The notes below the pieces were generated by a model. It saw only the letters and a list, made by a program, of their open reading frames with translations. It had not been told where the DNA came from and searched no databases. A DNA stretch of 64,000 nt. Origin: Eledone cirrhosa. Its lineage: Eukaryota. Where the stretch lies: assembly GCA_964016885.1 (NCBI GenBank), contig OZ024746.1, positions 97,030,001-97,094,000 on the forward strand. The letters are read 5' to 3'. Position numbers and translations under genes: made by a program. Of this stretch, positions 3,508 to 50,682 are shown piece after piece (within the stretch, counting starts at the first letter, position 1; the number at the start of each line of letters is the position of its first letter).

Positions 3508-3885
3508 TAATATAAGATCAGAAGATGGTTAAAAGAGTTCCAAGTATTTTATTATGCGCATTTCAAAAACAAATATCATCATGGGATGATATCTGCTTTC
3601 TCATCAGATAAAATAGGGAAACATGATATGAAGCTTAAAAAACACTTTTCAATAGTGAAGCTTTAAATCAACATATGAAAAAACTAAGATGGATATATGA
3701 GATTGGGAAAAATGAGGAGGGGGGGGGGGTTGTGGGTAAAAGTGAGGAAGAGGAAGAAAGAAAAATAAAGGATGGTGGGGGAGGAGTATAAGAAGGGAGG
3801 ATGAGAGAGGAGGAGAAATAGCCTTTTTGAAATGCGCATAATAAAATACTTGGAACTCTTTTAACCATCTTCTGATCTTATATTA
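3508..3885. mobile_element. Fold-back element with perfect 62-bp arms and a complete hammerhead in the left arm
   Basis: 3508-3569 is the exact reverse complement of 3824-3885. The element ends in (TA)n. Confidence 0.8.
3545..3615 (-). ncRNA. Minimal type-I hammerhead ribozyme motif
   Basis: Reverse complement: UAUUUUAU-CUGAUGA-G-AAAGCAGAUAUCAUC-CCAU-GAUGAUAUUUGUUUU-U-GAAA-U-GCGC-A-U-A-AUAAAAUA. Perfect 8-bp stem I, 16-bp stem II (3 G-U), palindromic GCGC loop III. Confidence 0.85.
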
Positions 3886-3945
3886 TATATATATATATAT
3901 ATAAGAGGGTGTTAAAGTTTGCTTGAAGCATTGTGAAATGTGTAA

Positions 3946-4014
3946 AATACGTAGTTTAGAAAGCCACAACAATGCAGAGAATCTGCATTGTTGTGGCTTT
4001 CTAAACTGCGTATT
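3946..4014. repeat. Near-perfect 33-bp hairpin between (TA)n tracts
   Basis: aatacgtagtttagaaagccacaacaatgcaga-gaa-tctgcattgttgtggctttctaaactgcgtatt. Confidence 0.8.
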
Positions 4015-4640
4015 ATATATATATATATATATGTATATATGTATGTATATATGTATATATGTATGTATATATACACACACACACACACATAGACATATAT
4101 ACATGTGGTAGAATAGTGCTCCATTAATGGAAGGAAGGTAACCTCAGTAAAGGTAAGGAACTCAATATATCAGGTAAAGAGAGTACTTTGTTCTATTTCA
4201 TTGAGTATTTACATTTACAGAACCAATCCTGTAAAAGTCATTTCTCAATTAAATTAAATACATACATTATATATATGTATGTATTTCTGACTCTCTCTCT
4301 CTGACTCTCTCTCTTTCTCTCTCTCTCTTTCTCTCTTTCTCTCTCTCTCTATATATATATAATATATATATATATATGTGGAAAAAATGAAACAAAATTT
4401 TATTTCCCACTCTTAGTACGGCTTTTACTTAAATATAAGTTTGTATACGTACATACATATATGTATACAGACGTACAGTAGTATGTATATATATATACAT
4501 ACATGCACACATATATATATGCACGTATGGATTTACCAAACATTTATTATAATGCTCGGTGTGTTTGTAAACAAACATCCCGTATTAAGCCGTAGTGTCT
4601 AGCAATCACCGTTGCTCATTTGTTCAACACTGACAAAGGA

Positions 4641-4683
4641 ACGATGTACTAGTTTCAAGCTTATAAGCTATCGTCAGCACCGT
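4641..4683 (-). ncRNA. Minimal type-I hammerhead ribozyme motif
   Basis: Reverse complement: ACGGUG-CUGACGA-U-AGCUUAUAAGCU-U-GAAA-C-UA-G-U-A-CAUCGU. 6-bp stem I (one G-U), palindromic ACUAGU stem III, GUA triplet. Confidence 0.75.
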
Positions 4684-4877
4684 ATACCTTCCTGCCAGAT
4701 GATTGATCGTCTGAAAGTATATACTTTCCTTATGCATATTAACGGCTGAGCAGCCTAATTTGCATATCGATTGCATATCGATTAACTAACTCGATATGCA
4801 AATTAGGCTGCTCAGCCGTTAATATGCATAAGGAAAGTATATACTTTCAGACGTTGAATCATCTGGCAGGAAGGTAT

Positions 4878-4920
4878 TAGTTGCTGACGATAGCTAATAA
4901 GCTTGAAACTAGTCCATCGT
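4878..4920 (+). ncRNA. Hammerhead motif with degraded stem I
   Basis: TAGTTG-CTGACGA-T-AGCT-AATA-AGCT-T-GAAA-CTAG-TC-CATCGT. Core intact with a GUC triplet, but stem I is mismatched. Confidence 0.6.
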
Positions 4921-46842: not shown

Positions 46843-47450
46843 CCCATAACTCCTGATAGAGTCATAAGGGCACTGTATTGATATACAGTATTTCTTGTTT
46901 ATTTTTAAGCCTGGCAGAGCCGATCCCTCTCCAGGCCTGAGTACAGCTTTCTTCTAGATTTCTTCCAGGGAAAGATAGAAAGTGAGAGAGAGGAAATGAG
47001 AAAGAGATATAGAGGAAGAATCAACCCCAGACAGGTACTTCTTTTATCGACCTCAAAAGGATGAAAGATAAAGTTGACCTCAGCGGGATTTGAACTCAGA
47101 GAGCAGAGAGCTGGAATGAATACCATAAAGCATCCTATCCAACATTCTAACAGCTCTGCCAATTCGCTTCCTTACAGTACCCTAAATAAGGAGATATAAG
47201 ATGCCCTATATATTGCTTTGTATGTTTGGACTCATAACTCCTGAGTCGTAGGGGTGCCATAGTGATATATGGTGTGTCTTGGGCATATAAACCAGGCAGA
47301 TCCCATCCCTCTCCAGGTCAGAAGACAGTCAATTTTTTCCGGAGAAGGAAAGAAAGTGAGAAAGAAATATAGGAAGAATCAACCTCAGTACTGGACTGGG
47401 ACAATTTTATTGACCTCAAAGGAATGAAGAGCAATGTTAACCTCGGTGTG
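46843..47450 (-). mobile_element. Two tandem SINE family A variants with a longer alternative tail
   Basis: Central domain tcgacctcaaaaggatgaaagataaagttgacctc joined to a tail cataactcctg...ggcagagccgatccctctccagg, also seen at 32623-32890. Confidence 0.65.
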
Positions 47451-47584
47451 TTACTGGTACTTTATTTTATTGACTCCGTATGGTTGAAAGGCAAAGCTAA
47501 CAACCTCAACAGGAGTTGAACTAGATGCCAACATAATAACAAGAAAGTTAGTTATTTTAGTAAATCCCTCCAAATATTTTATAT

Positions 47585-47970
47585 TATCAACTTTTTCAGA
47601 TTTCACTTGAAGAGAAAAATCAGGGTGGAGAGGGAAGTGCTGCCTTCCAACCAATTTGTTGAAAGGTGGGTGAGAGTGGCGAGTATGGTCTGTGTGAATG
47701 GGCCTGCCTTGAGCATACACCTGTAGACTGGAGTAGAAAAACTGAGAGAAGGCACTTTGCCATAGTGGATAGAGTGACCATGGCTTTTGTGGGATTTTCT
47801 ACACAAGTGACCCTTAGAGTCTCCTCACCTTTGTGGAATTTTTTATGTTTGTTTTGAATGTTTATTTTCTTAGTCTCTTTTATAAATTTTATTTTACAGA
47901 AAGAAAAACCAACGCTGTATTGTCTTTAATGTTTCCTTAATGTGAGCCCTGTGTGGCTAATAAAGAAATC
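47585..47970 (+). mobile_element. Possible Tx1/L1-type LINE 3' end
   Basis: FFRFHLKRKIRVEREVLPSNQFVERWVRVASMVCVNGPAL* then a T-rich UTR and AATAAA near 47958. Resemblance only. Confidence 0.4.
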
Positions 47971-50019
47971 ATTATTTTAAACATTAATAAGATGTACATT
48001 TTAGTTGAAATGTGATAATAAAAGAGCCAAAGAAGTATAGCATTTGTGGTGGTAAAAATATCTAAGCTTTTCAGTTATATAAAGTTGTGATAAAGCTGAC
48101 ATAAACGTAATTAAGGCATAGAAATGCTGTAGCTTGATTACTTTTTGTAACTGAATATGGCAAAGATATAACATATAAGTGAATTATGCATAATTTACTG
48201 CAAGTGCATATAGAAGATATGCATGTGCAATAAATTATATTATCAAACTATATTAACAAATATACAATTTTGGATAAATAAGTTGTATTTAGAATTAATA
48301 TATAAGAATTCAATTCCTGATTTAATTATTTGAAATTTGTATTTTCTCACAAAGATTATATATATTTCAATAAATGGTGTAGTTTATTTTCTGACAGAAT
48401 TTGTTATCCAAATATTGAAGTAAATGAATTATATAACTTTTAATTATTTTATACACTATCAAAATATAAAATATTGTTAAAAGTATGAATGAAATTTATG
48501 AGAAAACTCAAAGGCAAGTTCGGTTATTTGATTTTATATAAATCAATTTATATATTAATTAGTTTTTCAGGCCTCCTTCTGCTGGGATAACTGGTTTATG
48601 ATCAGTTGTTAATTGTTCAGTAGAAAATGTAGGCAGGGAGTGCTTTAGAGATGTATATCATATTGAAAAGATGGCTTAGGAAAAAAAATAGCCTCTTTTA
48701 TAATAAGCTAGGGGCAGACATGAACTTTTGACACTGACATTGCAGTGAAAGCTAGAAGAGCAGTAACTCCCCCATCTTCTCACCAAAAAGCTATACACAT
48801 GAGACACTGGAAGCCAGTATGAAGGCAATCCATCCAGGAGATCAATAACTCTGAATAAAATTGACACAATGTGGAGGGGGCAATTTCTCTAGTGCTGTCA
48901 GTATGTATGATAATGTGCACCCAATCCATGCTACAAGGTTGTTTGTGATAGTAAGGTCATCCAGTAAGGTCAGTAAACCCATTCCAAAACTATGAATAAT
49001 AAACATTTAATGACAACCTCTAACTCTACCCATGTAAACATAAATATGTTGAAACATGTGTAAAATATGAAGTAGGGCTATATAGACAACATATGCAGAT
49101 CCTTCCAGACTAGAATTGTTTCTACATTTGGCACAAGGCCAGCAATTACCCTAGTACATTACTGGAACTTTATTTTTATCGACCCCGTAAAGATGAAAGG
49201 CAAAGTTAACCTCGGCAGGACTTAGATTAATGCATTTGAGTGAGGCATGGGAGTGATAAGAGAAAAAGGAGAGATACATATATTGGTTTCTCATTTAAGC
49301 ATGAGGCCAACAATTTTGGGGGAGGGGAAAATCAATTATATCAACCGCAGTACATTACTGGTACTTTATTTTACCGACCCTGTAAGGATGAAAGGCAAAG
49401 CTAACCCCGACGGGATTTGAACTCAGATCATAAAGAGGTGTAACTCTATGCCATAAAACATATTGTCCATCACTCCACCGATTAGCTGTTTTTGTTGTTT
49501 AGCTTCAGACCATCATCCAAGATTAACTAAACCATCATCAAGGGCATTCTATTCAAAACCATCCTGTCTTTATTTAAAGCATTATATATCCAAGACTACA
49601 ATTTTCAGTCTGTTGATTTTATTAAAATGGTAGTGTATTGGTTTCAGAGAAAATTGGCTGCTATTTCTAATAGGTTGAGTGAACATGTATAGGCTCCGTC
49701 ATTGACTTACAATGGCTCAAGAAGGCTTACTAACTTTAGAGGAATACAGAATGTTTTAATATGGTAGAAGACACAAAAGAAAGGCAGTTTGGCTTTAGAC
49801 CAAATCTCGTTGGCAAGTAAATTATTGCCTATCAGAAGATGGCATTTCTTTTGGAGGATGACTAATGGAAAGAAGGCTCAAAACATGAAACAAAATGCAT
49901 TTCTATTAGAAAGGAATAAGTTTGAAATTTTAAATACAATTGAAATGGAATTAATTAAATTATGGCAAGAGAATGTATATGTGTACAATGACTGAACTGT
50001 TCTAGTTGTATGCATCCAT

Positions 50020-50220
50020 TTAACCCTTTAGCATTTAAACCGGCCAGAATTCTCTCACTTTTTTCTGTTCAAACCAGTTGTAACTGGCCACTAATACTGA
50101 TGTTAAGGTATTGTTCTCAAAATAAATATCAAAATCTCATAGATTCGATATTATGTGAGGTAATGTCTTGACTGTGAAAATATAATAGTAAATATTGATT
50201 AGTATAAATGCTAAAGGGTT
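50020..50220 (+). mobile_element. piggyBac-type MITE
   Basis: TTAA-CCCTTTAGCATTTA...TAAATGCTAAAGGG. Confidence 0.8.
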
Positions 50221-50620
50221 CTATATATGTATGTATATATGTTCTTTTTGCTACCTCGGACACAATTACCCTTGCATATTTTTCACCCATTGCAAGAGAA
50301 TGTCTTCACATACCACCATTATGTTTTCCTGTTTTCTTTTGCTCATAACATTTTTTGAAATATTTACTTCTGTGATGACAGATTGATTTTTCTAAGTTTC
50401 AGATGATACCATGTAGAGTGAAAGCAGAAATTATTTGCTTAAACTTTAATCTGTACTAATAATATATATTTGCTGTGTGGGTTTATATATACTTATAAAT
50501 ATATATAAATACAATCCTTATTGAGCCCTCTTCGGATGTTTGGTCTTCATATTTAATATTACTATATATATATATATCAATGATATTAATAAATGGAAAC
50601 TAAATTTATAAAACCATATT

Positions 50621-50682
50621 TATTTTATTATATATATTTCAAGAGTACCAAAAACTTTGGTACACTCTCATCAGATAAAATA
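50621..50682 (-). ncRNA. Minimal type-I hammerhead ribozyme motif (same stem I family as 3545 and 11024)
   Basis: Reverse complement: UAUUUUAU-CUGAUGA-G-AGuGUACCAAA-guu-UUUGGUACuCU-U-GAAA-U-AUAU-A-U-A-AUAAAAUA. Confidence 0.83.

Follow-up and report, generated by a model that had tools for sequence, protein, structure and literature searches.

Three hammerhead motifs of Eledone cirrhosa as probable 3′-end modules of short Penelope-like elements

We analysed a stretch of 64,000 nucleotides (nt) of the Eledone cirrhosa genome (contig OZ024746.1, positions 97,030,001 to 97,094,000 of the forward strand; hereafter the window), which has about 33% G+C and is rich in (TA)n runs and dispersed repeats. 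Three type I hammerhead motifs in the window (copies 1 to 3, Table 1) are the subject of this work, together with their relation to Penelope-like elements (PLEs). The motifs read, in order, stem I 5′ strand, CUGAUGA, stem II, GAAA, U, four bases, AUA and stem I 3′ strand, and the pattern TATTTTATCTGATGAG-N15-45-GAAAT-N4-ATAATAAAATA has exactly these three matches in the window. As a negative control, the same pattern had no match in 100 dinucleotide shuffles of the window. Each copy has the CUGANGA, GAAA and NUH core, the three helices and the open helix I of a type I hammerhead. These results confirm the preliminary description of this DNA, which had placed three hammerheads at these positions.

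Stem I (eight pairs, all A-U), CUGAUGA, GAAA, the U15.2-A16.2 pair and the AUA triplet are identical in all three copies, and helix III is a single pair closed by a tetraloop. This loop III is GCGC in copy 1, AUGU in copy 2, where self-complementarity arises solely via G-U pairs, and AUAU in copy 3; the combination of a common stem I, core and triplet with differing loops, reported before, was read directly from the sequence. Stem II forms 16 unbroken pairs in copy 1, and three pairs, a pyrimidine mismatch and then six to eight pairs in copies 2 and 3, with energies of −16.4, −7.6 and −10.0 kcal/mol for copies 1, 2 and 3. The whole motifs gave folding z-scores of −4.0, −0.8 and −2.1 against shuffles. 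The earlier claim that stem II differs and yet remains paired is therefore borne out for all three stems, whereas copy 2, taken alone as a whole motif, folds no better than shuffles. The first pair of stem II is G10.1-U11.1 in three of three copies, as had been described, in place of the consensus closing pair G10.1-C11.1; a register with a bulged G9.1 was rejected for all three because it would leave the 3′ U unpaired. Rfam gave no match at gathering score in the whole window, and the 145 weak matches in 3000-11500 contained no hammerhead family, being microsatellite-driven matches of the microRNA type only. A relaxed motif had no match in viral contigs. Its matches in metagenomes (six loci, four of them distinct) were rejected as chance, since they lie in AT-rich prokaryote or phage DNA with stem II energies of −0.5 to −2.0 kcal/mol; one of the four distinct matches has a self-complementary loop.

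The three copies share the anatomy of an insertion. A tail of 45-55 nt follows each hammerhead on its 3′ side, and then (TA)n. Next to copy 1 lies an inverted, 5′-truncated twin, which begins in the 3′ arm of stem II, takes in the whole tail and is followed by (TA)n about 45 nt on. As traits of PLE insertion, the tail with (TA)n is thus present in three of three copies, and the inverted twin in copy 1 only. The body upstream of copy 1 has no second copy in the window and matched no protein family. When sequences of the copy 2 family were mapped, depth collapsed at 10935-10943 with loose ends on both sides, and loose ends were also found before 10886; the copy in the window appears to lack an internal segment at about 10940 that is present in most family members. 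Opposite-strand joints are listed within this family. The candidate string CTGATGAG on the minus strand at 10939 was rejected, as it falls on the private change and deletion of copy 2. Degenerate strings resembling minimal hammerheads flank copy 3 (about 50845-50880 and 50505-50540, both on the minus strand), which suggests a nested insertion among older PLE ends. The hexamer GTATGT, which resembles a 5′ splice site, was seen 18 nt upstream of stem I in copy 2 (11001-11010, plus strand) and 29 nt upstream in copy 3 (50706-50711, minus strand) and is absent before copy 1; a similar string occurs in the loose-end consensus of other families. The pseudo-long terminal repeats (pLTRs) of PLEs can carry introns.

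Table 1. Positions in the window of copies 1 to 3, of the parts of their insertions and of other features (UTR, untranslated region; SINE, short interspersed nuclear element)
Feature	Position	Strand	Details
Copy 1, type I hammerhead	3545-3615	-	stem I 3615-3608/3552-3545; CUGAUGA 3607-3601; GAAA 3564-3561
Copy 1, 16-pair stem II	3600-3565	-	U-GCGC-A; predicted cut after A3553
Copy 1, AAUAAA	3548-3553	-	read from sequence
Copy 1, 3′ tail	3498-3544	-	ends in short AT run adjoining abundant SINE-like repeat
Copy 1, upstream body	3616-3823	-	pyrimidine-rich, 3′-UTR-like
Copy 1, inverted 5′-truncated twin	3824-3891	+	98.5% identity over 68 nt, then (TA)n
Copy 2, type I hammerhead	11024-11090	+	stem II 11039-11070; loop II 11049-11060
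Copy 2, loop III AUGU	11076-11079	+	predicted cut after A11082
Copy 2, AAUAAA	11082-11087	+	read from sequence
Copy 2, upstream body	10868-11023	+	begins after (TA)n; repeated family, recurrent 5′ boundary
Copy 2, tail and (TA)n	11091-11145	+	run begins 53 nt past predicted cut
Copy 3, type I hammerhead	50621-50682	-	stem II 50667-50641; loop III AUAU; predicted cut after A50629
Copy 3, AAUAAA	50629-50624	-	second AAUAAA 5 nt further
Copy 3, tail and (TA)n	50565-50620	-	run begins 52 nt past predicted cut
Palindromic insertion, another family	1585-1947		outward-facing hammerheads 1823-1886 (+) and 1640-1697 (-)
Core-mutated sister of 41460 motif	2198-2254	+	both sisters with inverted partial twin
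Palindromic insertion, further family	4430-5135		hammerheads 4641-4683 (-) and about 4878-4920 (+)
Hammerhead-like, doubtful	13186-13278	+	60-nt branched stem II; CUGAGGA core; GUC triplet
Hammerhead, another family	41460-41516	+	G10.1-C11.1; loop III AUAU; stem I ACUGC/GCAGU
Minimal hammerhead, published PLE consensus type	63138-63173	+	extra nucleotide after A9; G10.1-C11.1; no loop III
Putative decayed PLE-like reverse transcriptase remnant	62180-62560	+	about 600-950 nt upstream of 63138 hammerhead
Host exon, Kazal/follistatin module	6466-6687	-	best solved-structure match agrin

Four of the 22 listed sequencing runs (X1, X4, X6 and X20) were aligned to copy 2, and all family data given here cover copy 2 only. 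Sequences matching it were found in X1 (2188 contigs), X20 (2530 reads) and X6 (five contigs), and there were none in X4. The summed X1 depth reached about 3.6e5 immediately 5′ of the motif and 9.1e5 across its 3′ core, compared with 8-22 for single listed X1 contigs; the copy 2 family is very abundant, and the summed depth is no measure of copy number. Reads with loose ends, 217 of them before 11024 and 230 behind 11092, come from further families that have this hammerhead and other flanks. A recurrent 5′ boundary beside (TA)n (157 reads) suggests a defined short non-autonomous element. The differences considered number 40 of 79, including 28 of the 31 X1 changes with a frequency of at least 4%. 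Among these listed X1 changes, 1 of 51 core or stem positions was affected compared with 23 of 192 other positions (p=0.02), and the lone core or stem change was in the last pair of stem I (7.5%). The five listed substitutions in the stem II segment all fall in loop II and are either neutral or strengthening for the fold; by comparison, a weaker fold would follow from 46 of the 96 possible single changes in this segment. The catalytic core and the cleavage triplet show no variation between the three families, and none among the changes listed for the copy 2 family. Frequent variants thus lie in loops and flanks and nearly spare the core and stems, which supports selection on structure.

Comparison between motifs gave the same picture. 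Copies 2 and 3 share a stem II layout of three pairs, a pyrimidine mismatch and a GUAC helix, and in their predicted structures four stem II pairs are changed on both sides and still paired. In an alignment of seven window motifs, 12 of 15 counted pairs have a two-sided change, and none of 500 shuffles reached its covariation score; the rows are few and related, two of them belonging to one insertion and three sharing stem I. Taken together, these results uphold the earlier claim that structure was selected while sequence drifted, and they make it plausible that the hammerheads were functional as ribozymes during diversification.

Copies 1 to 3 are not the only hammerheads here. A structure-based scan found nine type I motifs in the window, three of which are these copies, compared with a mean of 0.13 and a maximum of 1 in 60 shuffles. 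The A15.1-U16.1 segment is self-complementary in nine of nine, although the scan required just the 15.2-16.2 pair. Four inverted arrangements with 3′ ends facing outward (1585-1947, 2076-2313, 2693-3035 and 4430-5135) each combine an outward-facing hammerhead with a second one or with a partial twin. A U-U pair stands at the base of stem II in the arrangements at 1585-1947, 4430-5135 and 2693-3035, and the first of these families has GUAC as loop III. The motif at 13186 passes the loose scan and fails the stricter one. A degenerate hammerhead-like stretch was also seen 3′ of the 63138 motif (about 63300-63340).

The type I fold, the tail of about 50 nt leading to (TA)n, the twin of copy 1, the abundance of the copy 2 family and the sparing of core and stems support the reading that copies 1 to 3 are, probably, 3′-end modules, each made up of a hammerhead-bearing pLTR and a tail, from three short PLE families that are related but long diverged and were inserted at (TA)n. 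All three have the tiny helix III and the palindromic 15.2-16.2 and loop 3 segment of PLE pLTRs (AUGU by way of G-U pairs); the unpaired nucleotide between A9 and 10.1 of the PLE consensus is absent from them and present in the 63138 motif. Since no PLE coding sequence was found upstream of the copies, the PLE link rests on anatomy and neighbours. Among the neighbours is the remnant at 62180-62560, in which MGT..AP, RFLDD and SFIDIL motifs were picked by eye in two frames and which we take to be a PLE-like reverse transcriptase. An Atlas lead for it (score 0.95) is a cluster in which 23% of the members carry PF26215 HTH_animal. The remnant escaped the Pfam scans, which gave no PLE domain in 142 open frames and 12 read-through frames of the window.

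Several observations weigh against this reading or its parts. No reverse transcriptase or GIY-YIG sequence was found upstream of copies 1 to 3, although a missing frame is expected for short or truncated copies. The flanks of the three copies align with one another no better than shuffles (p 0.05-0.87), and therefore they represent three separate families and not three copies of one. A defined short element fits the recurrent boundary of copy 2 better than random truncation does. The p value for sparing of core and stems rises to 0.29 if the three unlisted X1 changes are all in stems; the 77 changes in X20 are listed in part; and 5 of the 23 changed positions outside core and stems are private to the window copy. 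In addition, one X6 contig has a stem II pair broken at 11044, and a rare insertion occurs behind 11061 in the copy 2 family. Finally, cleavage was dispensable for insertion of an anole PLE in vitro (PMC11167929).

If copies 1 to 3 are PLE modules, their cycle may be pictured as follows, with dimer cleavage, a protein partner and the clade of that partner taken from analogy with known PLEs. With a helix III of one pair and a self-complementary tetraloop, a lone copy would cleave inefficiently. By swapping strands, two hammerheads that lie in tandem on one transcript, or that are held together by protein, could form an eight-pair helix III, and the dimerised hammerheads would cleave behind AUA. 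An autonomous PLE would then supply endonuclease and reverse transcriptase in trans, and these would copy the RNA into AT-rich (TA)n DNA, with copying beginning about 50 nt past the ribozyme and at times leaving an inverted truncated twin. Selection at each round of copying may keep the core and the pairing while stem II drifts, and loop III would need self-complementarity only. Stem I would be common by descent and composed of A and U only, and perhaps, more speculatively, is fixed as an AAUAAA signal in its 3′ strand.

Many of these features are known from PLEs, a context that the preliminary description had left unnamed. Cervera and De la Pena (2014; PMC4209133) described metazoan PLE hammerheads with a long helix II, a palindromic loop 3 and activity as dimers, many divergent families per genome with compensatory changes, mostly single truncated copies, and hammerhead pairs on opposite strands 100-700 bp apart. 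The same type I architecture, CUGAUGA/GAAA core, long helix II and U before G12 are found here, and by our own reading of their Fig. S3, where the GAAA column is set apart, Drosophila willistoni Penelope has the same layout of GAAA, U, a palindromic tetramer and AUA. In contrast to their consensus, which has a bulge and G10.1-C11.1, copies 1 to 3 have G10.1-U11.1 without a bulge, and helix I has eight A-U pairs instead of 2-5, with up to 16 pairs in helix II. The searched part of their supplement file 2 has no octopus row. Craig et al. (2021; PMC8557442) described Hydra-clade PLEs, including Hydra-1_Obim of Octopus bimaculoides, which likewise have (TA)n targets, inverted 5′-truncated copies and, in many rows, U11.1; Penelope-13_HM and Penelope-17_HM have the G-U at 10.1-11.1 seen here, and by our own count one stem I (atgg/ccat) is common to 7 of 14 Hydra magnipapillata families. 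Unlike copies 1 to 3, with one pair and a palindromic tetraloop, the Hydra-clade elements have a helix III of 3-4 pairs round a centre of 1-3 nt, and a short helix II common to those families. The 13-nt string of stem I and core is absent from the available part of that supplement.

Inverted 5′-truncated copies, tails of 30-40 bp and (TA)n targets have been described for PLEs (PMC8557442, PMC3846280), and G-U or U-U at 10.1-11.1 occurs in published PLE rows (PMC8557442, PMC4209133) and in axolotl Amex2 (PMC7229834). Judging from these sequences, G10.1-C11.1 is a consensus trait and not an absolute one. The palindromic loop III, dimer cleavage, the long stem II, G10.1-U11.1 and differing palindromes within a genome are already published for PLE hammerheads. 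For octopus or cephalopod hammerheads, the literature searched contained only Craig et al. as relevant, and the families described here seem to be unlisted in it; other supplements or Repbase may list them. As a model of mechanism, the anole Poseidon element PAc (Frangieh et al. 2024; PMC11167929) carries its hammerhead in the pLTR and has an AT-rich target, and copying starts a short way downstream of the hammerhead, which defines the tail. PAc is autonomous and was tested in vitro, whereas for copies 1 to 3 a protein partner is putative.

The anole element also bears on what the fold is kept for. It could be retained as a binding or priming signal for a PLE protein, or as a 3′-end processing signal, with catalysis marginal or irrelevant; a G10.1-U11.1 pair and a stem I of A-U pairs only should both be weak, and AAUAAA stands at the cut site. 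Published PLE hammerheads cut slowly or solely with protein (PMC4209133, PMC11167929). The anole hammerhead cut only with protein, its core mutants inserted normally and none of the RNA-seq ends lay at the cut site (PMC11167929), and the minimal hammerheads of S. mansoni were inactive as monomers and weak as dimers (PMC4209133). However, this leaves the invariance of the core and triplet, both across the three families and among the changes listed for the copy 2 family, to be accounted for, and a self-complementary loop III is explained by catalysis as a dimer. We regard a purely signalling role as rather unlikely, and as the strongest of the alternatives.

The AAUAAA itself begins at N17 and runs into the 3′ strand of stem I in all three copies. 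It occurs 12, 12 and 21 nt after N17 in three of the five other families in the window (three of six if the doubtful 13186 motif is counted), the 1585-1947 family being one of those with 12 nt; the 4683 and 63138 families and the 13186 motif lack it close to the cut. Random 31-nt windows contain it in 4% of cases. Among windows before (TA)n runs, it was present in 7 of 12 inside hammerhead elements and in 8 of 81 outside. In published rows it follows the cut in 9 of 56, by our own count on the available Fig. S3 (PMC4209133), and our literature searches found no paper that assigns stem I of a hammerhead a double role as a poly(A) signal. It is conceivable, and in our judgement quite unlikely, that the 3′ strand of stem I doubles as a poly(A) signal and that the weak all-A-U stem I acts as a switch with two states. 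In the open state, the signal would be read and the RNA polyadenylated for translation; in the closed state, dimerised via loop III, the signal would be hidden and the RNA cut as a template for copying. Such a double role, if true, would account for a stem I that stays fixed as stem II drifts. Against it, the DNA is AT-rich and the copies are not independent; AT-richness and shared descent are the simpler explanation.

The copies could also be monomeric offspring of retrozymes of the type without long terminal repeats (non-LTR), whose short tandem units are transcribed, cleave themselves, close into circles and return to the genome by means of a PLE enzyme; it is the RNA intermediate, and not the ancestry, that sets this idea apart from the reading as PLE modules. 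The recurrent 5′ boundary of the copy 2 family beside (TA)n, without coding sequence, and a family size within the 170-400 nt range of retrozymes fit this idea, and one X1 contig joins 11085 back to 11007. The axolotl retrozymes HHR_Amex1/2 (PMC7229834) are likewise non-coding, measure a few hundred bases per unit and carry a type I hammerhead; their helix III is a single pair capped by a palindromic tetraloop, or else their helix II starts from U-U, and cleavage there depends on dimers (PMC7229834; preprint 10.64898/2026.07.22.740005). The 2026 preprint derives animal retrozymes, many of them monomers, from PLE pLTRs. In the window, however, none of 36 tandem-repeat rows covers a hammerhead, and no tandem hammerhead units of 150-450 bp were found. 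Instead of the short canonical helix II of four pairs with conserved loop contacts, these motifs have a long helix II and a freely varying loop II, and the inverted twins and tails are traits of PLE insertion. A retrozyme origin is quite unlikely.

The same low standing is given to the proposal of the preliminary description that the loop III palindromes are family-specific dimerisation codes blocking cleavage across families. Duplex energies were calculated for 8-nt loop III segments in forced register. GCGC paired with itself at −10.5 kcal/mol, compared with −0.1 with AUGU and +5.7 with AUAU, and of the three loops only GCGC is orthogonal; GUAC is likewise selective. For AUGU and AUAU the values were −2.2 and −3.2 kcal/mol with themselves and −3.2 with each other, and thus the heteroduplex of these two loops equals or exceeds both homoduplexes in stability. 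AUGU is the majority state of its family. An origin of AUGU by CpG decay of ACGU was rejected, the sole T>C change of at least 4% in X1 being at 10965. However, a minority of the AUGU family itself carries AUAU (4.5% of X1 contig depth; 185 of 1166 X20 reads, 16%), and AUAU is also loop III of the unrelated 41460 family. Furthermore, just 16 perfect 4-nt palindromes exist, and the families are likely to outnumber them; the two partners within one tandem transcript do not differ and need no code; and differing palindromes per genome are in print for Aedes (CGCG, GGCC; PMC4209133). Loop III is thus kept self-complementary and is no one-to-one family address.

Co-option by the host, for instance in processing of an agrin-like pre-mRNA, is extremely unlikely: the agrin-like exon is on the minus strand and copies 1 and 3 lie in that sense, but copy 2 runs antisense to it, the motifs belong to repeats dispersed in either orientation, single copies are expected to be nearly inactive, X4 has no contig and X6 five for 10880-11122, and, with one exon found, the window as a whole cannot be taken as intronic.

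Further exons of the agrin-like gene were not recognised in the 64 kb. The abundant SINE-like repeat of the window presumably resembles an octopus SINE, and a 45-bp tandem unit matching part of it (48 copies, 53387-55544) maintains an open frame of 736 codons on the minus strand; another 45-bp tandem unit, with 24 copies at 30832-31915, has an open frame of 293 codons. A frame at 40552-41166 (minus strand) matches RVT_1 and has a PHD-like finger; it was rejected as a PLE domain, being a separate fragment that resembles a long interspersed nuclear element. There is also a weak DDE_3 transposase match at 27797-28192 (plus strand), and the frame at 56006-56434 (plus strand) presumably resembles the restriction-like endonuclease of non-LTR elements.

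For a specialist, the dimer mechanism, the palindromes and the G-U closing pair hold no surprise. The copies add unannotated, Rfam-negative hammerhead families of PLE type from a cephalopod genome. The overlap with AAUAAA, if functional, would link ribozyme folding to the choice of the 3′ end in PLE RNA. As natural variants that differ in loop III on a constant stem I and core, the three copies offer a panel for comparing homodimer with heterodimer cleavage, and since the role of PLE hammerheads is still open in print, they form a natural set for that question.

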